DNA of 64,000 bases from a candidate division Kazan bacterium GW2011_GWA1_50_15 (GTDB lineage: Bacteria > Patescibacteriota > Kazan-3B-28): contig CP011216.1 in the NCBI GenBank assembly GCA_001029795.1, positions 499,580 through 563,579 of the forward strand. Reading direction: 5' to 3'. The stretch's first letter is position 1. The number at the start of each line of letters is the position of its first letter. Shown in pieces: positions 53,516-62,052 of the stretch. Both the position numbers and the translations under genes were made by a program. The notes under the pieces are model-generated. The model made no database searches. It worked only from the letters and a program-made list of their open reading frames with translations, and was not told the origin of the DNA.

Positions 53516-55156
53516 TCATTCGGCGATAACCCGCCAAAGCTCTTCTAGGGTGGTAATGCCGGCTAGGACCTTGGCAACTCCGTCTTGGGCGAGGGTGGTC
53601 ATCCCTTGGCTTTGGGCAAGAGCCTGAATTTCGTGCGCGGGGGCACTGCTCATGATCTTGACCTTAATCTCAGGGGTGATCTCAAGTAGTTCAAATATGC
53701 CGACGCGGCCCTGATAACCAGTACCGTTGCATTTATCACAAGCCTTGGCGATTGGGAGGGTAGCGGGGATCTGAGCATCGGGCAAGATAGACTTGATCTT
53801 GGCTTGAGCCGCCTCGTCCGGCGCGGCCGAAGCCTTGCAGTTAGGACAGACCTTGCGGACCAATCGTTGAGCGATGATAAGTCTCAACGCATCGGAAAAC
53901 AACTGGGGCTTGGCCCCTAGGTCAATAAGCCGAGGTACGGCGCCAGCTGCATCGTTGGTGTGCAGGGTGGATAACACTAGGTGCCCCGTAAGGGAAGCAT
54001 TCACAGCGATATCGGCGGTCTCGCTGTCACGAATCTCTCCGACTAGGATGACGTCCGGATCTTGGCGGACGATCGCTCGCAGGGCGTTGGCAAAATCGTA
54101 GTGTTCTTCTGGGTTGACCTGAGTTTGAGTCACTCCTTGTAGACGGTACTCGATCGGGTCTTCGACGGTGATGATCTTGGTGGTAGGCGAGTTGATAGTG
54201 TTCAAGACGGCGTAGAGAGTAGTGGTCTTACCAGAGCCAGTGGGGCCGGTGTTGAGAATAAGCCCATTTGGTTCGTGGATCGATCGATCGATCACTTGAC
54301 GGTCGTGAGAACTCAGCCCTAACTCATCTAGACTTACGAATTTGCCTTCCTGGGGGAGCAGGCGCATGACGATCGACTCGCCGTATTGGGTGGGCAGGAT
54401 CGAAACTCGGATATCATACCGGCTCGCGCCAGCAGTAATCGAAAACCGACCGTCCTGCGAACTCTCGGTGATGTTGAGTTTCAGCGCCGCCATCAGCTTG
54501 ATGCGGTCCACTACTGCTCCTTGAGCTGAGGTGGGCAAAGTAGCAATATCCTGCAGCACTCCATCTAACCGATAACGAAGCCGTAAGTCGGTTTGGGTGG
54601 GCTCAATGTGGATGTCGGAAGCCTTCAAACCAGTGGCCCCGGCCAAAATAGTGGTGAGTAGCTCGCTAGTGGAGGTGCTAGTGAGTTTAGCTTGAAATTC
54701 TGTCAGATCATTAAGCTTGGGGATGGTCTGCGGTCCAGAAGTGTCGATAGTGATCTCGTGGGAGTGATCGGCTGCTGGGGCGAAGGTGTCGTATACTCCC
54801 AAGAGATAGCGCATAGATGACTCGGATACCAAAACGGGGTGGAACTGATACTCATCCATAGCCGCCAGGTGCTTTAAAGCAGTGACGGTTGCGGGGTTAT
54901 TGGGATCACTCAGGGCTAGTAAGATCTTGGTCCCAGCTTTCTCAAAAGCGAAGACATGACCAGACTGAACCATATCTCTAGGGACGAGGGCGACTGCGGC
55001 TGGATCGGGTTGGAAGCCAGCTAGATTACGATATTCAAGACCCAATTTATCAGCCTGAATTTTGGTCAGTTCTTCTTCTTTGGCGCGGTGGAGATTTTTA
55101 ACCGCCTGTTCCAACGGGGCTTTGTCGCCATCTGGTTTTGGGGTTGAGTTAACCAT
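53516..55156 (-). CDS. pilB: GspE/PilB family secretion ATPase with N-terminal T2SE_N domain and tetracysteine zinc motif
   Basis: Walker A GPTGSGKTTT, Asp/His boxes, CPNC...CDKC. An N-domain is present, so a VirB11-type ATPase is unlikely. Confidence 0.9.
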   Translation of the reverse strand: MVNSTPKPDGDKAPLEQAVKNLHRAKEEELTKIQADKLGLEYRNLAGFQPDPAAVALVPRDMVQSGHVFAFEKAGTKILLALSDPNNPATVTALKHLAAMDEYQFHPVLVSESSMRYLLGVYDTFAPAADHSHEITIDTSGPQTIPKLNDLTEFQAKLTSTSTSELLTTILAGATGLKASDIHIEPTQTDLRLRYRLDGVLQDIATLPTSAQGAVVDRIKLMAALKLNITESSQDGRFSITAGASRYDIRVSILPTQYGESIVMRLLPQEGKFVSLDELGLSSHDRQVIDRSIHEPNGLILNTGPTGSGKTTTLYAVLNTINSPTTKIITVEDPIEYRLQGVTQTQVNPEEHYDFANALRAIVRQDPDVILVGEIRDSETADIAVNASLTGHLVLSTLHTNDAAGAVPRLIDLGAKPQLFSDALRLIIAQRLVRKVCPNCKASAAPDEAAQAKIKSILPDAQIPATLPIAKACDKCNGTGYQGRVGIFELLEITPEIKVKIMSSAPAHEIQALAQSQGMTTLAQDGVAKVLAGITTLEELWRVIAE

Positions 55157-55158
55157 AT

Positions 55159-56082
55159 TTATTGAGTAACCAGCGGATGGGCCACTACTATCGCTTTATC
55201 GGTGGTGCCTTCGAGAGGGAAGTGTTCTAGCCTGACGCGAGCAATGTTTTCCCATAAGCCCACCTCTTCCACTGTAGCAGAAACCCCAAAGGTCAGAGTG
55301 ACAACCGGGTTACTAGAGTAGACGTCAATTCGGTAATCGCCCATCCAGCCAGCGATCCTCTGGGGCTGGCCGCTTTGCCCATAGATGATATAGTAGCTGC
55401 CCTGAACGGGTTTCAGCCCGTTCGGGAAGAGATCATCCACGATAAATGTAGCCAGTTTGGCTGGCAGAGAACCAAAGTCAGCGCCAGGCGGGAGGATGAC
55501 CCCTACACTAACATCGACCTTGAAGTCGACTTGCGTCTGGTGGTCGGCGTAGGCTTCGACCGAATGGACATAACTGCCGTCTGGAGCCAATCTAACCTGT
55601 TTGGTGAGGCCATAAACGTATTTGAGGCCCTCGGGTTTTTCTTCGGTCGGGATGGCAGGGGTGAGGATACCGCCGCTATTGGGGTCGGTCGGATCAGTGC
55701 CGAGAATCACCTCTATACCGTCAGCTACCCCGTCGCCGTCAGTGTCTGGGTTAGTGGGGTCGGTGCCGGTATCCTCCGGGTTAGTGGGGTCGAATACACC
55801 GGTACCCGTCTCGGTGCTGTTGGGAAGCCCGTCGTTGTCATGGTCACCTGGGCCAGTAACTTTAGGGCTAATAAAGTCAGTCGTCTCGCCTGGGATATCG
55901 GGGATATCGTGGGCGGGGTTGTTAAGTTCGGCGTCCCGCTCCGCCAAGGTGCGAGTACCCCAACGCTCTTCGATACCGGAGGTCTCTCTAATAAAAGTAG
56001 CCCCGGCCGAGGCAATGATAAGAATGCCGACAGCGGCGGCACCCACAGTAATGGCCAAACCAGTCCCGGCCCCAATACGCAT
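55159..56082 (-). CDS. Membrane-anchored protein with thrombospondin type-3-like calcium-binding repeats (DxDxDG) and an unknown C-terminal domain
   Basis: N-terminal TM. DHDNDGLPN / DTDGDGVADGIE repeats. Confidence 0.6.
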   Translation of the reverse strand: MRIGAGTGLAITVGAAAVGILIIASAGATFIRETSGIEERWGTRTLAERDAELNNPAHDIPDIPGETTDFISPKVTGPGDHDNDGLPNSTETGTGVFDPTNPEDTGTDPTNPDTDGDGVADGIEVILGTDPTDPNSGGILTPAIPTEEKPEGLKYVYGLTKQVRLAPDGSYVHSVEAYADHQTQVDFKVDVSVGVILPPGADFGSLPAKLATFIVDDLFPNGLKPVQGSYYIIYGQSGQPQRIAGWMGDYRIDVYSSNPVVTLTFGVSATVEEVGLWENIARVRLEHFPLEGTTDKAIVVAHPLVTQ

Positions 56083-56085
56083 GAC

Positions 56086-57876
56086 TTAGCCTCCTGTTAG
56101 ATTACGCAGTTCAGCGAGCTGGGCTGGGTCAGAGGTCACGATCTTGTCTTCCACGTAGCTAGCAACTACCTTGATAGCGGCATGGCTGGTGCCGGCAAAA
56201 AATAGACCCTCCCCAACCTCGGCTTCTAGGAGCAGGAACTTCTCGCCTTGGGTCAGGTTGAAGGTTTCAGTGACCACATCAATGGAGGCTGGTGACTGGC
56301 GGAAGAGAAGCTGTAGGGAAGAGTTGGCCACCACAGCTTTACCGTACTTGGAACCGAGAAAGTCCTCGACATCCTGGGTGATGGTGGTGAGACCCAGGTA
56401 ATACTTACGGGCCCGCTTGGCGATCGAGTACAGAAATTTGGCGGAGTCCTCGTACTGCATCAAGATCCAGGCCTCGTCGATTACAAGGATCCGCTTCTTT
56501 ACATCGAAACGGATCTTGTTCCAAATGTAGTTGAGAACGATGTACATAGCGATGGGGCGCAGAACGTCTTCCAGGTCGCGGATGTTAAAGACCATAAGGC
56601 CAGTGTCTAATTCAAAGTTGGTGGGCTGGTTGAAAATACCGGCGAAGGTCCCCCGGGTGTATTTGCTAAGCCGCTGTGATAGGCTCTCGGCGCCCTGCAT
56701 ATTGTCCAAGACATTTTGCAGATCCTCCATGGTCGGCATGGGGTTGGCGTGGGTTTTAACGTCATCGGTGATATCTTTGAGAGCGTAAGTTTCGCGGATG
56801 GCTTTATCCATCAATGCGTCCTCTTCGGGAGTCAAAGTCCCCACGAGCAGGTTCATCAGCCCCAAGAGTGTAACAATGGCTGAGCGCAAAACCTTTTCGC
56901 CCTCGGCGTTGGGTCCCAATTTCGGTAGATCAAATGGGTTAATCCGCTTGTCGCTATTAAGGGAGATAGAGATGTAGCTGCCGCCGGCGGCCTTGGCCAG
57001 CGCTTCATACTCGTTTTCCGGGTCGATGACGATGGCGTCAACTCCGAACATGGCGCTGCGCAGGATCTCTAGTTTGACGGCGTAGGATTTACCACCTCCA
57101 GACTTGGAGAAGACGGCCATATTGGCGTTTTCTAGGTCAAAGCGGTCAAATAGGATGAGCGAGTTGTTGTGACGGTTGATGCCGTACAAGACACCCTTGC
57201 CGGTGGTGAGGTCCACCGAGGTGAAGGGGAAGGTGGTAGCTAAGCTTGAGGTGGTCATGTTGCGGACGATGTCCAGTTCGTCCAGCCCCAGCGGCAGCGC
57301 CGAATTGAAGCCCTGCTCCATCTGTAGGAGCGCATGTTTAGTGTAGACCAACTGCCCACCGAGCGTGGTTTCGATGTGCTGGGTGATGGACTCCAGCTCC
57401 TGCTCAGTCTTAGCGTAGATAGTAAAATAGAGAGCGTAGTGAAAGAACTTTTCGATACCGCGCTGCAGGCGGTCGCGGAGCTCCTCAGCATCTTGGTAAG
57501 ATATCTCCAGCTCAGGGTCGCGGATGGCTCCTTTTTCTTGATTGATACGCAAACTTGCCTCCATCTCGGTTACCTTGCGGCGCAAAGTTTTCATAATGGC
57601 GGAGCTGTCTACAGGCATGATATGCATGGAGATGTCTAAATTGACATCGTAGTTGATGACTGGAGACAGCCAGTTGGTCTCGATGTATTGCGGGTAGGTC
57701 AGGACGAACAGCGACCGAACAAAACGGCCGTTGAGCATAAGATGATCGTTGCTGATCTCCAAAGCGGCGGGGGCGACTAGGTCGCGGACGGAGACTAGGC
57801 CGGCCTCGAACTGTTCCACGGCTTTGCGAGCCGAGGCTTCATCAGAGTTAACTGATTTTCTTTTAAACCAGGCCAT
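56086..57876 (-). CDS. virB4: VirB4/TraC/PrgJ family type IV secretion ATPase (C-terminal about 600 aa portion)
   Basis: Walker A SKSGGGKSY, Walker B ILVIDEAW and VirB4 N-domain-like region. Confidence 0.88.
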   Translation of the reverse strand: MAWFKRKSVNSDEASARKAVEQFEAGLVSVRDLVAPAALEISNDHLMLNGRFVRSLFVLTYPQYIETNWLSPVINYDVNLDISMHIMPVDSSAIMKTLRRKVTEMEASLRINQEKGAIRDPELEISYQDAEELRDRLQRGIEKFFHYALYFTIYAKTEQELESITQHIETTLGGQLVYTKHALLQMEQGFNSALPLGLDELDIVRNMTTSSLATTFPFTSVDLTTGKGVLYGINRHNNSLILFDRFDLENANMAVFSKSGGGKSYAVKLEILRSAMFGVDAIVIDPENEYEALAKAAGGSYISISLNSDKRINPFDLPKLGPNAEGEKVLRSAIVTLLGLMNLLVGTLTPEEDALMDKAIRETYALKDITDDVKTHANPMPTMEDLQNVLDNMQGAESLSQRLSKYTRGTFAGIFNQPTNFELDTGLMVFNIRDLEDVLRPIAMYIVLNYIWNKIRFDVKKRILVIDEAWILMQYEDSAKFLYSIAKRARKYYLGLTTITQDVEDFLGSKYGKAVVANSSLQLLFRQSPASIDVVTETFNLTQGEKFLLLEAEVGEGLFFAGTSHAAIKVVASYVEDKIVTSDPAQLAELRNLTGG

Positions 57877-57878
57877 AA

Positions 57879-58565
57879 TTATTGCCCCTGTTGGGCTTCT
57901 TTAATATTCTGGATAACTGATGCGTCTACGTTGCTGACCGAAAAAAGTTTCTGCCGGCGAGCAGTGTCGGGGTTGTAGGTTGAATAGAACAATTCGATCA
58001 GTTCCTGGGTGTTGAGCTGAACATTATGCAAGCCCAACCCGGCTAGGCCGGATGAAACTAAACTGGTCCGCTCTAGTAACTTGGTTTTGATCTCCGCGAA
58101 TCGGCCCCCAGTGGTGATCGGGCCGGACTTCTTGCCGAACAGTTTGCCCAAGAACCCGCCGGAGGGAGCCTCGAACCCAGTGTCATAAGGGATCACGATA
58201 TAAAAAGTTTTGCTCATAATGTTGGCCACGCCGATCAGCTCGCGGACAAAGCCGGTGTATTCGGCGGTCTGAGTGCGCAAGAGTTCATTGGTCTGTTCCC
58301 TGGCCAAGGTATCAAGCTGGGCCAGATATTTATCTAGATCGAGGGTGCGGGACTGTACGACGATCTGGATGGGGAATCCCAAACCGTTCAGGAATTCCTG
58401 GTACTGCCCCAAAAGTGCTTCCTGTTCATCGCGAGATTTAAGATTAAAGTTAATTGCGTTGGCCATCAGGACGGTGCGAAAACCGCCGGTCTTTAAGACA
58501 ACGATCCCATCACGGACTTCTTTGATGGGTAGGAACTTTTGTGTACTGTTGGACTTTTTGGCCAT
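57879..58565 (-). CDS. Hypothetical soluble protein (228 aa) resembling the extreme N-terminal segment of VirB4/TraC proteins; possible split-off VirB4 N-domain
   Basis: DGIVVLKTGGFRTVLMANAINFNLKSRDEQEALLGQYQEFLNGLGFPIQIVVQSR pattern. Stop TAA then TT then ATG of virB4. Confidence 0.45.
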   Translation of the reverse strand: MAKKSNSTQKFLPIKEVRDGIVVLKTGGFRTVLMANAINFNLKSRDEQEALLGQYQEFLNGLGFPIQIVVQSRTLDLDKYLAQLDTLAREQTNELLRTQTAEYTGFVRELIGVANIMSKTFYIVIPYDTGFEAPSGGFLGKLFGKKSGPITTGGRFAEIKTKLLERTSLVSSGLAGLGLHNVQLNTQELIELFYSTYNPDTARRQKLFSVSNVDASVIQNIKEAQQGQ

Positions 58566-58567
58566 GG

Positions 58568-59116
58568 TTAGTCGGTGTCAGTTAGAATATCTTCAACATC
58601 CAAACCGGCCTCGCTAACCGAGGAGCGGTTGGGGTTGAGGTTGTTGATCTGCGTAGTAACGGCATCCTGATCTTCTGCTCTCATTGTACCACCCGTATCT
58701 AAGAGGTGAGACAGTTTTTCAAGCTGAGTTTTAAGTTCGCCACCGCTTTGACGTTCGCGGACTTCGCTTTTAGTATCTTTGATGTCGCTGGCTTGGACTT
58801 TGATCGCCTGAACTAGTTGACGCGGCTCTTTGTGCCAGACAGCCTGCTTAGGCGACGTCCAAAAATGCCATAACTGCAATGCGAACAGGCCGAACGGACG
58901 ACCATTGATCTGAATAAAGGCTAATGACACGCTTAAGGCCACCGCTACTAAACTGATCAGTACGAACTCGGTGAAATAGAGGTACTTCCGAGTGTAGTAT
59001 TGATAGGCGATAAAGACGAGTGCGGCTCCGCCGAGAACGTAGAGGAACTGTTTCAGGGTCAGCGGACCGATCAAACGGTCTTCGCGGGTAACATCTTGTG
59101 GAATTTTGGCGGCCAT
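58568..59116 (-). CDS. PrgI family protein (VirB3-like small T4SS membrane protein)
   Basis: MAAKIPQDVTREDRLIGPLTLKQFLYVLGGAALVF N-terminal signature plus 2 TM helices. Confidence 0.75.
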   Translation of the reverse strand: MAAKIPQDVTREDRLIGPLTLKQFLYVLGGAALVFIAYQYYTRKYLYFTEFVLISLVAVALSVSLAFIQINGRPFGLFALQLWHFWTSPKQAVWHKEPRQLVQAIKVQASDIKDTKSEVRERQSGGELKTQLEKLSHLLDTGGTMRAEDQDAVTTQINNLNPNRSSVSEAGLDVEDILTDTD

Positions 59117-59118
59117 AA

Positions 59119-62052
59119 TTACGGTTTAATATTGTTGGTAGCAGAAGCACCCCGAGCCAAGTGGTCCAGGGCGTCAGCTAGGCTTAACTCGCCAGCTTGG
59201 GTTGGGTCTTGCAAGTCTTTCTTGCCAACTCCAAAGTTGGTCAAGTTAGTCCGCTTAGCCCAGTCAGCGACTTTGTTACCTAGACCCAGGGACTCAACTT
59301 TGATCTTAGTTTCGTCGCCCCCGGCGGCTGTCCCTGCCCGGCGCAGTTCGTTCATCAGGCCAAGTGATTCAGTCCGAACCTCCTGCTGGGCGGCTGTCCC
59401 GGTAACTGTAGCGCCAGCGGTAGTAACAAATCCCGATTTAACCACCTCGGTTAACGTGTTCTCATAAGACGGGTGCCCTGAAGCTGACTGGAGAATATCA
59501 ACAGTTAACGTATCGATGGTGCGCTGTTGGGTGGCTTGCTGTTGGGCGAGAGCAGCCGCTTGGCGTTTAGCCGCATCGGCACCAATAGTCTTGGTAGCAT
59601 ATTCTGATAGTTGTGCGGCTAGAGCTGGGTTAGCCATCCCCTCGGCGATCGGTGCGCCTTGGGTGCGGATAGTAGCTAGCGGAATACCGTTCCTGTGGAC
59701 TAGAAGCTTAGCAGCGGCATCAGCTGAACCTTGGAAGTTAGCAAAGCTTAACAGGCCCTCGATATCATGTACTTTTTGGGCCTCATCTAGATTGGGGTTG
59801 GCGGCGATACGCTCGATCTGTCCATAGACATTTTTATTTGTTCCCGAGAAAGCGCTCAGAGCGGCTATCCCACTGCTTCCCAGGTTGGTGACAGAGTCAC
59901 GGAAGTCGGCGTCGTTGGCGATAGCATCGAGTACTTTGGGGTCAGCTGAACGGATAGCTAGGGCGGCTTGCTGCCCGGCGCCGCCTAATCGGTTAAGACT
60001 GTTAGCTAGGTTACCTAACTCTGCACTCAGCGAAGCGATATTGGTTTGACTGGCGGCTAACCGGGCGTTGGTTTGAGCAATCTCGGTTTCAGCTGCAGTT
60101 AATTGGCGCTGGGAGTGTAGGGTAGTCCGCTTGGCTTCGAGGTCGGCGGCTCTCTTTTCATCTTTGGCTGAAATGGCAAACGGTTTTTTGGGCATGTATT
60201 GATAACCGGCACCGGTAGTTAGGTTGCTAACCAGGTCGTAGAAGTCGGAGTCTTCTAAAAGGGGATTCAGCATTTTGCGCCAGTTATACTTGTCCACCCC
60301 AGTCCCTGCTTGTTTGAGGGCCCGCGTCACTTTACGGCTAAGCTCTCGGGCAGTATCAGTAGAGACACGGCCAGTGGCAACCCGTTCAGCCTCAGCTCGT
60401 TTGCGCACATCAGCGATGGATGCCTCCATGGCTTCGGGCCCGAGGGCAATACTGTCTTCTAGCTCAGAGTCATCCTTGGCGATACTGTTTTTGATAGCGT
60501 TAGCCCAGTTGCGGCTGGATGCCAAACCAGGGTTTTGTTTATCGAATTGTAGTTCTAGGGCAGACTTTTGAGCAACATCTAAGTCGTCAATTGATGTTAC
60601 GCCGTACCGCTTGTAGCCTTCAATGGCCATGAATTCATCTAGCTTTCGTTGGCGGTTAGATAAGATGACGTTGGCCTGCGGGAGAAGCTGCTCATTGACG
60701 GCTCTACCCGTAGCAACCTTATTGGCTTTCTTGGCTGCTTCCAGCTGCGCATCTAATTTAGCGCCGGCAATCTCGGCTTGGCGCAATGGCCCACCCAACT
60801 TTGAACCCTTGAGCTTTTCAACGCCAAGCTGCCAGTATTTACCGATAGTGCTAGACGCGCTTTTGCCGGCCAGTTGGAACGGTTTGTCGATCATGTCGCC
60901 CATCCATTTAGTAGCGGCGCTTAACGGCACGTCCAGCATCTTGGGCGTGTTGGCAGCAGCGATCATCACGGCTACCATCACAATGATGTACATAATCATC
61001 CCGGCATCCAGTCCAGCCGCGGCGCTGTTGTCACCAAATTTAAACAGAGCGACTAGTTGCTCGGAGACTGAACTGCCAGGAGCATTGGGGCGGAGTAGAT
61101 TAGCTACTCCGAGCAGCAGAAAGGAGATCGGGAGAACTAAGATCCATTTGATTAAGTTGGTCCACCACCGGCTAGCATAGCTGGATAGGTCCTTGTGCGG
61201 CAGTAAGCCGAGTGCGAAGTAGAAGGGAGCGAAGATAGTCAGCAGGATGATCTGGATGGCCCGTTCGGTCATGACGGCCACGATCCGGAAGAGGGCATAG
61301 GTGGTCACTATAGCGATAATAAGGATGACTAGCGATAGACCAATGTAGCCGTAGATGCTCATTTTTGGGTCGAAGATGACCCCACCAGAAAAGAGGGTGA
61401 GCAAGTCTTGGTAGAGGATGTCGATCTGGGATGGTTGGAAGCCAAACACTGTGCTAGCTGAGTTTTTCAGGGCGTCACCCGCTTCAATAAATACCCAAAC
61501 TAACTGGTAACTTAAATTAGCCAACACTACTGCGGTGACCAGGCCGGTGATAGCCTTCTTGAAGTTGTACCCGCCCGAGCGGGTGATGATCATAATAGCG
61601 AAGATCGCTAAGGCCAAGAAGAAGAGTACATTGGCGGCGGAGCGCATCGCCCCCCACGCCTGCAGAACGGCAGGGGAACCCAGTACACCATTCTGGCCCT
61701 TAAGAATAACCTCGTTCAGGATCCAAAGCAGAAGAGCGTTGATCATCCCCAAAAGCGCCTCGAGACCGTAAACCAGAGCACCAACGATGGCTTTAAGGGT
61801 GGACTCGGCTAGCCAACTTACAGCCTGTAGACCGCCAGAGGGGTCCAACAGACGTTTTAACCAATCCGGGATGAATAGGGCAGAGCTACTGGTGTATTGG
61901 CCCGGGATAAGCTGAGCGTGGGCGATCAAAGGTACACCAACTAGTACAGCGATGGCTAACAGGGAGACAATCAACATCAACCGCCCGCGCGGTTTATCTA
62001 GAAATCGTTTAATTAGCTGGGACCAATTTTTCATTTTTATTTTGGTGGCCAA
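59119..62052 (-). CDS. Large VirB6/TrbL-like polytopic T4SS membrane protein (977 aa) with a roughly 550-aa Ala/Gln-rich predicted coiled-coil C-terminal domain
   Basis: Signal peptide plus about 8 TM helices in the first 420 aa. Long low-complexity C-terminal domain. First gene of the operon. Confidence 0.6.
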   Translation of the reverse strand: MATKIKMKNWSQLIKRFLDKPRGRLMLIVSLLAIAVLVGVPLIAHAQLIPGQYTSSSALFIPDWLKRLLDPSGGLQAVSWLAESTLKAIVGALVYGLEALLGMINALLLWILNEVILKGQNGVLGSPAVLQAWGAMRSAANVLFFLALAIFAIMIITRSGGYNFKKAITGLVTAVVLANLSYQLVWVFIEAGDALKNSASTVFGFQPSQIDILYQDLLTLFSGGVIFDPKMSIYGYIGLSLVILIIAIVTTYALFRIVAVMTERAIQIILLTIFAPFYFALGLLPHKDLSSYASRWWTNLIKWILVLPISFLLLGVANLLRPNAPGSSVSEQLVALFKFGDNSAAAGLDAGMIMYIIVMVAVMIAAANTPKMLDVPLSAATKWMGDMIDKPFQLAGKSASSTIGKYWQLGVEKLKGSKLGGPLRQAEIAGAKLDAQLEAAKKANKVATGRAVNEQLLPQANVILSNRQRKLDEFMAIEGYKRYGVTSIDDLDVAQKSALELQFDKQNPGLASSRNWANAIKNSIAKDDSELEDSIALGPEAMEASIADVRKRAEAERVATGRVSTDTARELSRKVTRALKQAGTGVDKYNWRKMLNPLLEDSDFYDLVSNLTTGAGYQYMPKKPFAISAKDEKRAADLEAKRTTLHSQRQLTAAETEIAQTNARLAASQTNIASLSAELGNLANSLNRLGGAGQQAALAIRSADPKVLDAIANDADFRDSVTNLGSSGIAALSAFSGTNKNVYGQIERIAANPNLDEAQKVHDIEGLLSFANFQGSADAAAKLLVHRNGIPLATIRTQGAPIAEGMANPALAAQLSEYATKTIGADAAKRQAAALAQQQATQQRTIDTLTVDILQSASGHPSYENTLTEVVKSGFVTTAGATVTGTAAQQEVRTESLGLMNELRRAGTAAGGDETKIKVESLGLGNKVADWAKRTNLTNFGVGKKDLQDPTQAGELSLADALDHLARGASATNNIKP

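Follow-up and report, generated by a model that had tools for sequence, protein, structure and literature searches.

Among the closest known relatives of the locus analyzed here are the T4SS of other Patescibacteria, in which TrsD is the most abundant T4SS component, with 2,272 homologues, 1,664 of which adjoin virB4 (PMC12102498). In that study, Quinonero-Coronel et al. (2025) identified TrsD as a remote homologue of the VirB4 N terminus and assigned it no function. A TrsD homologue is essential, along with other T4SS genes, in "Ca. Southlakia epibionticum" (PMC12102498, which cites Wang et al. [2023] for the essential T4SS of this organism). A relaxase is missing from most Patescibacteria clusters, and VirB3-VirB4 fusion proteins, which exist in some conjugative systems, were not found in Patescibacteria (PMC12102498). 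The main text of Guglielmini et al. (2014; PMC4027160), a study cited by PMC12102498, contains no explicit statement on TrsD and VirB4. The arrangement of TrsD and VirB4 as two genes in Patescibacteria is, at any rate, already known.

A comparable arrangement occurs on plasmids of Firmicutes. Staphylococcus aureus plasmid pGO1 (MPF-FATA, pGO1 subclass) carries trsC, trsD, and trsE in this order, with TrsD being 227 aa and TrsE 672 aa long. TraD and TraE of pSK41 are equivalent to TrsD and TrsE. We found the same pair on plasmids of Pontibacillus, Geobacillus, and C. botulinum, and the gene upstream of the pair on the Geobacillus plasmid is annotated PrgI.

Our window is the whole 64,000-nucleotide stretch of the chromosome of candidate division Kazan bacterium GW2011_GWA1_50_15. 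Two neighboring ORFs on its minus strand, both with ATG starts, encode a TrsD-like protein of 228 aa (57879..58565) and a VirB4-like T4SS ATPase of 596 aa (56086..57876). The initial annotation had described a VirB4 split into two adjacent minus-strand ORFs that sum to 824 aa and meet at CAA TAA TT ATG, and each of these particulars was recovered when we reread the sequence. The junction (57874..57889, minus strand) consists of a Shine-Dalgarno (SD)-like AGGGG (57889..57885) located 8 nt upstream of the virB4 start codon, the TAA that ends the TrsD-like gene (57881..57879), two spacer nucleotides, TT (57878..57877), and the virB4 ATG (57876..57874). The larger ORF has its own ATG with an SD-like element ahead of it, as for independent initiation. 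The annotation left a choice between two genes with coupled reinitiation, a frameshift, and an assembly error, and it regarded a naturally split VirB4 as unusual. We conclude with high confidence that the locus is a real, functional, and separately translated gene pair of a chromosomal T4SS of a Kazan-related Patescibacteria (CPR) bacterium, composed of a TrsD-like protein and an N-terminally short VirB4 ATPase.

The similarity of the 228-aa protein to the N-terminal domain of VirB4, which had been proposed from motifs, is significant against two NCBIfam models: NF045975 (the VirB4_plasma/Mbov_0397 family) was matched with an E value of 2.4e-9 over model positions 99-233 of 894, and NF045971 (the CD1110 family) with an E value of 4.5e-5 over positions 3-119 of 752. 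The motifs themselves (RDGIVVLK, AINFNLKS, DEQ, and FLNGLGFPIQIVVQS) are present in the protein and correspond to invariant columns of the family alignment. A protein homologue search returned 1412 homologues with E values of 1e-3 or lower; the best 120 of these are all stand-alone proteins, with identity down to 48%, and 119 of them are 200-235 aa long, the other being 341 aa. Judged by these scores, the resemblance of the protein to its homologues and to the VirB4 N terminus lies far above chance. The exact 228-aa protein and all 120 homologues are listed under PF26593 ("TraC-like") in precomputed annotation, while a local Pfam hmmscan gave no family at E≤1, the PF26593 model presumably being missing from the local copy.

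The match to TrsD is more distant. The protein falls below the cutoff of the curated NCBIfam TrsD model NF041427 (19.7 versus 200 bits), with residues 5-61 alone being matched, and hhalign aligned the profile of the 228-aa family to pGO1 TrsD over 173 columns (residues 6-198 versus 32-216) with an E value of 9.1e-6 and a probability of 83%. We call the protein TrsD-like rather than TrsD because of the low NF041427 score and this level of probability. A search of PDB sequences with the family profile gave no relative, the single hit being a chance TetR match (E = 0.15). When the AF2 model of the 228-aa protein (pLDDT 73, with residues ~130-150 and 205-218 of low confidence) was compared with the PDB by Foldseek, the top 14 hits were all TrwK/VirB4 chains, with a probability of 1.00 and 172-200 aligned columns. 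Kinship to solved VirB4 structures is therefore visible at the fold level only. The 228-aa protein corresponds, as a free-standing polypeptide, to the first N-terminal subdomain of VirB4.

The 596-aa protein matches NF045971 over positions 176-730 of 752 with 391.9 bits, above the cutoff of 325, and VirB4_plasma (NF045975) over positions 285-892 of 894; it also matches PF19044 (E = 4.8e-23), PF12846, and TIGR00929. Its residues 222-579 (56140..57213, minus strand) form a RecA-like ATPase domain homologous to the VirB4 C-terminal domain, as indicated by a phmmer match to PDB entry 4AG5 (VirB4 C-terminal domain; E = 5.9e-46), with TrwK entries 7O41 and 7O43 at E values of ~1e-9. The Walker boxes that had been ascribed to this ORF are both there: Walker A (SKSGGGKS) at residues 257-264 (57085..57108, minus strand) and Walker B (ILVIDEAW) at residues 463-470 (56467..56490, minus strand). 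The P-loop motor is thus present on this polypeptide by every measure that we used (4AG5, PF19044, NF045971, and the motifs). A complete VirB4 N-terminal domain is absent from it: coverage begins at position 176 of 752 in CD1110, 285 of 894 in VirB4_plasma, 238 of 792 in TIGR00929, and 244 of 800 in TraC-F. Only 221 residues (57214..57876, minus strand) precede the region that matches 4AG5, which in TrwK begins near residue 445. These residues represent the latter half of the N-terminal domain of VirB4, with weak Pfam matches at residues 50-197 to PF03135 (CagE_TrbE_VirB; sub-threshold, model positions 63-196 of 204) and to PF11130 (TraC_F_IV; model positions 265-374 of 375). Aligned with these models, the ATPase lacks the first ~175-240 positions of a full-length VirB4.

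In terms of model coverage, the segment absent from the 596-aa protein is exactly the segment supplied by the 228-aa protein upstream. The initial annotation had suggested an HMM alignment of the concatenated products as a check, and in this alignment they proved to be colinear with full-length VirB4 models. The concatenate aligns continuously with TIGR00929, residues 3-777 corresponding to model positions 3-724 of 792, and joining both products raises the score from 391.9 to 408.7 bits for CD1110 and from 269.4 to 306.9 bits for VirB4_plasma. At the level of these alignments, the two products cover VirB4 end to end, complementary and colinear, with no overlap.

The genomic context of the pair is that of a T4SS. 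Directly upstream of the 228-aa gene is a gene for a 182-aa PrgI family protein (58568..59116, minus strand; PF12666, E = 2.6e-10), a VirB3-like membrane partner of VirB4; in pGO1, this slot is occupied by trsC, and the Geobacillus plasmid has PrgI there. Further upstream lies a gene for a large polytopic membrane protein (59119..62052, minus strand), 977 aa long in the ORF listing and 971 or 952 aa in other gene calls. Its sole family match is a weak one to PF19597 (TrbL_4; E = 0.075), and the position of its gene is conserved across related contigs and loci; we tentatively regard it as a candidate VirB6/TrbL-like channel subunit. The ATPase is accordingly encoded with T4SS inner-membrane partners, PrgI lying two genes upstream of it. 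Downstream, the same tightly packed unit continues through 53516..56082 (minus strand) with spacers of 2-3 nt and includes genes for a TSP3-repeat protein (55159-56082, minus strand; PF18884) and a PilB/T2SSE-type ATPase (53516-55156, minus strand; PF05157 MshEN and PF00437 T2SSE in precomputed annotation). Genes for T4SS_pilin proteins (VirB2-like) are found nearby on a longer contig (L001) that carries the identical pair. The scanned cluster genes gave no match to a relaxase family or to a T4CP (VirD4-type coupling ATPase).

A crucial question is whether the two ORFs are genuine genes or the debris of one. Neighboring ORFs in different frames are a classic signature of an indel, and a sequencing or assembly error, or a recent pseudogenizing frameshift in a once-single virB4, would leave such a pattern. 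The identical 228- plus 596-aa pair is, however, present on at least 24 contigs that were assembled independently (ENA, JGI, and Logan) from different samples, and this refutes the assembly-error reading. Both ORFs are kept full-length across Patescibacteria classes, with identities of 42-83% for the 228-aa protein and 51-89% for the 596-aa protein, and the break point is shared with TrsD/TrsE of pGO1; we consider an indel or a pseudogene close to impossible. The other possibility is that a programmed +1/-2 ribosomal frameshift, or a stop-codon bypass, joins the ORFs into a single 824-aa VirB4. The ORFs are indeed only 2 nt apart and their joint length is that of a normal VirB4, but all neighboring genes of the operon are spaced by 2-3 nt, the junction (CAGGGGCAATAATTATG) shows no obvious slippery heptamer, and the ATG with its upstream AGGGG is available for independent initiation.

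The initial annotation had also recommended a comparison with orthologous loci. In other Patescibacteria genomes, the ATPase gene is the next gene downstream of the 228-aa homologue in 79 of 79 cases, always separate and never fused. The spacing of the paired genes varies between an overlap of 14 nt (-14) and a gap of 523 nt (+523), the relative frames 0, 1, and 2 occur in 22, 34, and 23 genomes, and an ORF of 119-137 aa is inserted between the paired genes at three loci. With such variable spacing and frames and with intervening genes, no recoding site could be conserved across the junctions, and neither a conserved overlap or slippery site nor a fixed frame relation, the hallmarks of recoding, was found across the orthologues of these 79 genomes. 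This refutes the frameshift alternative, to which we assign hardly any probability. Taken together, the independent contigs, the separate pairs, the variable junctions, and the intervening ORFs rule out the frameshift, assembly-error, and pseudogene readings, and the two-gene alternative is strongly supported. A small stand-alone ORF between the VirB3-like and virB4-like genes is present in the window, at all 79 related loci, in pGO1, and on the Firmicutes plasmids. The view of a naturally split VirB4 as something unusual is consequently not supported: in Patescibacteria, the two-gene form is the rule, pGO1-type plasmids of Firmicutes have it as well, and it is already in the literature. Since it is the described norm in Patescibacteria, it is neither an error nor a rarity.

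A subtler alternative casts the 228-aa protein as an accessory factor with a role of its own (for instance, in regulation or as an assembly chaperone), which arose as a duplicated fragment and merely resembles the VirB4 N terminus, the 596-aa protein being a self-sufficient minimal VirB4. Consistent with this, the 228-aa family diverges more rapidly than the ATPase (mean p-distance, 0.54 versus 0.41), and its members sometimes have long tails of low complexity or, on plasmids of Firmicutes, a hydrophobic segment at the N terminus. Against it stand the complementary, nonoverlapping coverage of fused VirB4 models, in which the 596-aa protein misses exactly the 228-aa segment, the unbroken adjacency of the two genes, and their strong coevolution: the correlation between their protein distance matrices has an r of 0.845, a value reached in 0 of 999 permutations. 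The TrsD homologue of Ca. S. epibionticum is, moreover, reported to be essential together with other T4SS genes (PMC12102498). We regard an accessory factor as quite improbable.

Returning to a divided VirB4, we conclude that the first gene encodes a TrsD-like protein equivalent to the first N-terminal subdomain of full-length VirB4, and that the second encodes a VirB4 ATPase starting in the middle of the N-terminal domain and containing the rest of this domain and the RecA-like motor. By the logic of fusion in relatives (Rosetta stone), the two polypeptides may associate noncovalently and rebuild a complete VirB4 N-terminal domain, which could hold the hexameric ATPase at the membrane by docking it to PrgI/VirB3. 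Coupled reinitiation, part of the original proposal, fares differently in the source genome and in the family. In the source genome, translation of the ATPase by termination-reinitiation coupling is plausible from the layout of the junction (TAA, 2 nt, ATG, with AGGGG 8 nt upstream); for the family as a whole, coupling is no requirement, since the spacer exceeds 8 nt in 39 of the 79 relatives. The alignment of the 596-aa protein with pGO1 TrsE (BLASTP, E = 1e-41) starts at residue 1, so the break point is the same, and because it is the same, the split is probably ancient and inherited with a monoderm (MPF-FATA-type) T4SS. The Patescibacteria system would then derive from a monoderm T4SS of this type that brought the split with it. 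It is conceivable, and in our estimation unlikely, that a free TrsD-like subunit goes beyond a detached part of VirB4 and serves as an exchangeable adaptor, dosed separately and gating how the VirB4 motor docks onto PrgI/VirB3, the split being functional, perhaps an ancestral prefusion state of the N-terminal domain of VirB4, and having helped to repurpose the T4SS for the epibiotic life of Patescibacteria.

For annotation, the two genes should be kept apart, neither merged into one nor labeled as a virB4 that is broken or frameshifted. TrsD-like protein and VirB4 form the standard module of the T4SS in Patescibacteria, and Saccharibacteria are reported to require this system for epibiotic growth. 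Our alignments suggest a hypothesis for the function of TrsD, namely, that it supplies the missing N-terminal subdomain of VirB4.

The locus can be set against four kinds of known systems. Fused VirB4 proteins (NF045971 CD1110, NF045975 Mbov_0397, TIGR00929 VirB4/CagE, and TrwK of R388 [PDB 7O41/8RTD]) resemble it in that their whole models are aligned colinearly by both products; TrwK of R388 in particular shares the fold of the 228-aa part, and the ATPase domain matches TrwK and 4AG5. In fused VirB4, however, the N-terminal domain is one polypeptide, whereas here it is divided about halfway, into 228 and 221 aa, upstream of the motor domain. The VirB3-VirB4 fusions of some conjugative systems likewise show that VirB3, the N-terminal domain of VirB4, and its motor can be distributed over genes in different ways, but they are rearranged in the opposite direction, by fusion instead of splitting, and PrgI is a separate gene here. 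Plasmid pGO1 has the same order (VirB3-like protein, ~227-aa TrsD, and ATPase) and the same break point. It differs in sequence, identity being only ~23-25% and the curated TrsD cutoff being missed by the 228-aa protein, and in being conjugative, with both a relaxase and a coupling protein; our locus is chromosomal and has neither among its scanned cluster genes. The Patescibacteria T4SS of PMC12102498 belong to the same lineage and share the components VirB4, TrsD, PrgI/VirB3, VirB6-like proteins, and nearby VirB2-like pilins; TrsD adjoins virB4 in them, and our locus is a member of this group, with no substantive difference. That study does not state that the partner VirB4 misses its N-terminal portion, and the complementary coverage described here makes the point explicit. 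This is a small addition to the known picture: each of the two products corresponds to the part of a canonical VirB4 that the other lacks, with the break lying inside the N-terminal domain, as in TrsD/TrsE of pGO1.

The window carries, on its minus strand, two adjacent genes whose products are complementary parts of a single VirB4. The first encodes a 228-aa TrsD-like protein (58565..57879) and the second a 596-aa VirB4-like T4SS ATPase (57876..56086), and both ORFs and their junction, CAA TAA TT ATG, are exactly as reported in the initial annotation. The N-terminal motifs that it quoted are present in the smaller ORF and form invariant columns in an alignment of 20 homologues (invariant residues include I38, N39, F40, L42, K43, E47, F58, N60, P65, Q67, I68, and S72), while the Walker boxes that it assigned to the larger ORF lie at aa 257-264 (Walker A, SKSGGGKS) and aa 463-470 (Walker B, ILVIDEAW).

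Among the full-length VirB4 models of NCBIfam, the 228-aa protein aligns with N-terminal ends only (positions 99-233 of 894 in NF045975, E 2.4e-9; positions 3-119 of 752 in NF045971, the CD1110 family, E 4.5e-5), and it matches the TrsD/TraD model weakly. The 596-aa protein aligns with positions 176-730 of CD1110 at 391.9 bits, exceeding the cutoff of 325, and with positions 285-892 of VirB4_plasma (NF045975), 238-724 of TIGR00929, and 244-720 of TraC-F. When the two products were artificially concatenated, a check proposed at the outset, residues 3-777 gave one unbroken alignment to positions 3-724 of TIGR00929, and scores rose to 408.7 bits for CD1110 and 306.9 bits for VirB4_plasma; the two products thus cover VirB4 co-linearly, each supplying the part missing from the other, with no duplication.

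Residues 222-579 of the ATPase match the crystallized VirB4 C-terminal domain (4AG5; E 5.9e-46) in sequence, and residues 251-548 align with TrwK, the VirB4 of R388, from residue 445 onward. Ahead of the motor domain there are only 221 residues, roughly half the length of a canonical VirB4 N-terminal domain, so the break falls inside that domain and not at a domain boundary. As modeled by AlphaFold2 (mean pLDDT 73.4), the small protein has a VirB4-like fold: its best 14 Foldseek matches in the PDB are all R388 TrwK/VirB4 chains (probability 1.00, 172-200 aligned columns, E 6e-4 to 1e-2), and the matches that follow have probabilities of ≤0.25.

The split had been ascribed to a real two-gene arrangement, a frameshift, or an assembly error, and comparison with orthologous loci, as had been suggested, decides among these. 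Contigs in 34 blocks of the public collection carry a 228-aa protein of identical sequence. The 24 contigs that we examined derive from independent assemblies (ENA, JGI, and Logan), and the four loci inspected over their full extent all have the 228+596 pair in the same context, which rules out an assembly artifact. The best 120 of its 1412 homologues, from Collierbacteria, Kazan, and other Patescibacteria, all stand alone at identities down to 48% (119 of 200-235 aa, one of 341 aa). We surveyed 80 loci, one genome per species, spanning Kazan, Saccharibacteria, Berkelbacteria, Paceibacteria, Moranbacteria, Magasanikbacteria, Komeilibacteria, Falkowbacteria, Zambryskibacteria, and Niyogibacteria. 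The ATPase gene lies directly downstream in 79/79 loci having downstream sequence, a stop in the N-terminal frame precedes the ATPase homology in every one, and none of the 79 holds a fused gene. Between the stop and the next start, the loci show anything from 14 nt of overlap to a gap of 523 nt (distances of -14 to +8 in 40 loci, 9-100 in 22, and >100 in 17), the relative reading frames are distributed 22/34/23, and in three loci an ORF of 119-137 aa intervenes (L027:5050-5502; L037:4612-5136; L078:4648-5106). Such variation is compatible with no conserved recoding mechanism, and the frameshift reading is refuted in favor of two real genes. By their N-termini, the intervening ORFs may belong with the small "four-helix-bundle / 23S rRNA IVS" and GxxExxY-type proteins, which are often scattered through such genomes. 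Across 78 genomes, the pairwise distance matrices of the two proteins correlate at r = 0.845, a value reached by 0/999 permutations, so the two genes are inherited together.

Several TrsD-like proteins (homologue P0115 and those of loci L026, L027, L033, L048, L053, L055, and L062) reach 314-359 aa through a C-terminal tail of low complexity, rich in Pro, Gln, and Glu, which the window protein lacks. Records titled "uncultured Gammaproteobacteria bacterium" (L031, L032, L040, L054, L058, L059, L064, L066, L069, L073, L075, and L082) bear Patescibacteria-type pairs with 43-47% identity to the window protein; these are probably mislabeled MAGs and not horizontal transfers.

In the window, the pair belongs to a six-gene unit (62052 to 53516, minus strand) encoding a 977-aa membrane protein, PrgI, the TrsD-like protein, VirB4, a TSP3-repeat protein, and a PilB/T2SSE-type ATPase with an MshEN domain. 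Every junction has a 2-3-nt spacer, so that of virB4 is nothing special; four of the six genes start with ATGGCC, and an AGGGG precedes the virB4 ATG by 8 nt. Given this tight packing, the T4SS genes and that of the type IV pilus-type ATPase seem to share a transcript. The large membrane protein (59119-62052, minus strand; TTG start) is 971 or 952 aa long in other assemblies; a single weak match (E 0.075) makes it a tentative VirB6/TrbL candidate, and its C-terminal half has weak coiled-coil-type matches only (Tropomyosin, DUF2730). Two antisense ORFs over the TSP3-repeat gene (55375-56100, 241 aa, and 55622-56089, 155 aa, both plus strand) are most likely non-coding by-products of its composition.

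Complementary homology, a VirB4-like fold of the small protein, a conserved two-gene state, co-inheritance, and an operon position directly behind the VirB3-like PrgI are thus established. In R388 structures, VirB4 touches VirB3 at the membrane through its N-terminal domain. From this background and the fused state in relatives, we propose that the TrsD-like protein would bind residues 1-221 of the ATPase, completing an N-terminal domain through which the hexameric motor would be anchored to PrgI. Translational coupling probably links termination at the TrsD-like gene to ATPase synthesis in this genome, although it is no family-wide requirement. The main rival to docking is that the small protein may have an independent accessory role: its sequence diverges faster than that of the ATPase (p-distance 0.54 versus 0.41), its relatives carry lineage-specific tails or hydrophobic N-termini, and in Gracilibacteria TrsD is reported to be unlinked from virB4 (PMC12102498).

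The TrsD-like and VirB4 proteins form an ordinary part of the T4SS of Patescibacteria, and the pair has been described before. Quinonero-Coronel et al. 2025 (PMC12102498) find that this T4SS branched off, as a monophyletic group, from the monoderm MPF-FATA class. In that study TrsD is the commonest T4SS component in Patescibacteria, with 2,272 homologues, 1,664 of them associated with virB4, and the virB4-adjoining homologue of Ca. Southlakia epibionticum ML1 is given as an essential gene. The system is also treated in a FEMS review of 2025 (PMC12857230). The pair is therefore already known, and the expectation that a naturally split VirB4 would be unusual fails for Patescibacteria. What our analysis adds concerns annotation practice and a concrete hypothesis for TrsD function.

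The arrangement extends to Firmicutes plasmids. A tblastn search of plasmids with the 228-aa protein returned 96 records, for the most part Bacillota; in Pontibacillus, Geobacillus, and Clostridium botulinum, a hypothetical protein of 274-334 aa (L085:4884-5708; L086:4881-5837; L087:4806-5810) is encoded immediately ahead of a 621-660-aa VirB4/DUF87 ATPase; the gene directly before that of the hypothetical protein encodes an annotated PrgI in Geobacillus and another small hypothetical protein in Pontibacillus and C. botulinum. These TrsD-like plasmid proteins of 274-334 aa start with a hydrophobic, transmembrane-like segment, whereas the 228-aa Patescibacteria form does not, which suggests that its membrane anchoring is arranged differently, perhaps via PrgI alone. 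The prototype plasmid pGO1 of Staphylococcus aureus carries trsC, trsD (227 aa), and trsE (672 aa) in that order. Our 228-aa family profile matches pGO1 TrsD over 173 columns (hhalign; E 9.1e-6, probability 83%), and the alignment of TrsE with the 596-aa protein (E 1e-41) starts right at the N-terminus, pairing MAFLKKKK with MAWFKRKS. The break point is thus a homologous one, and the split arose before these systems diverged.
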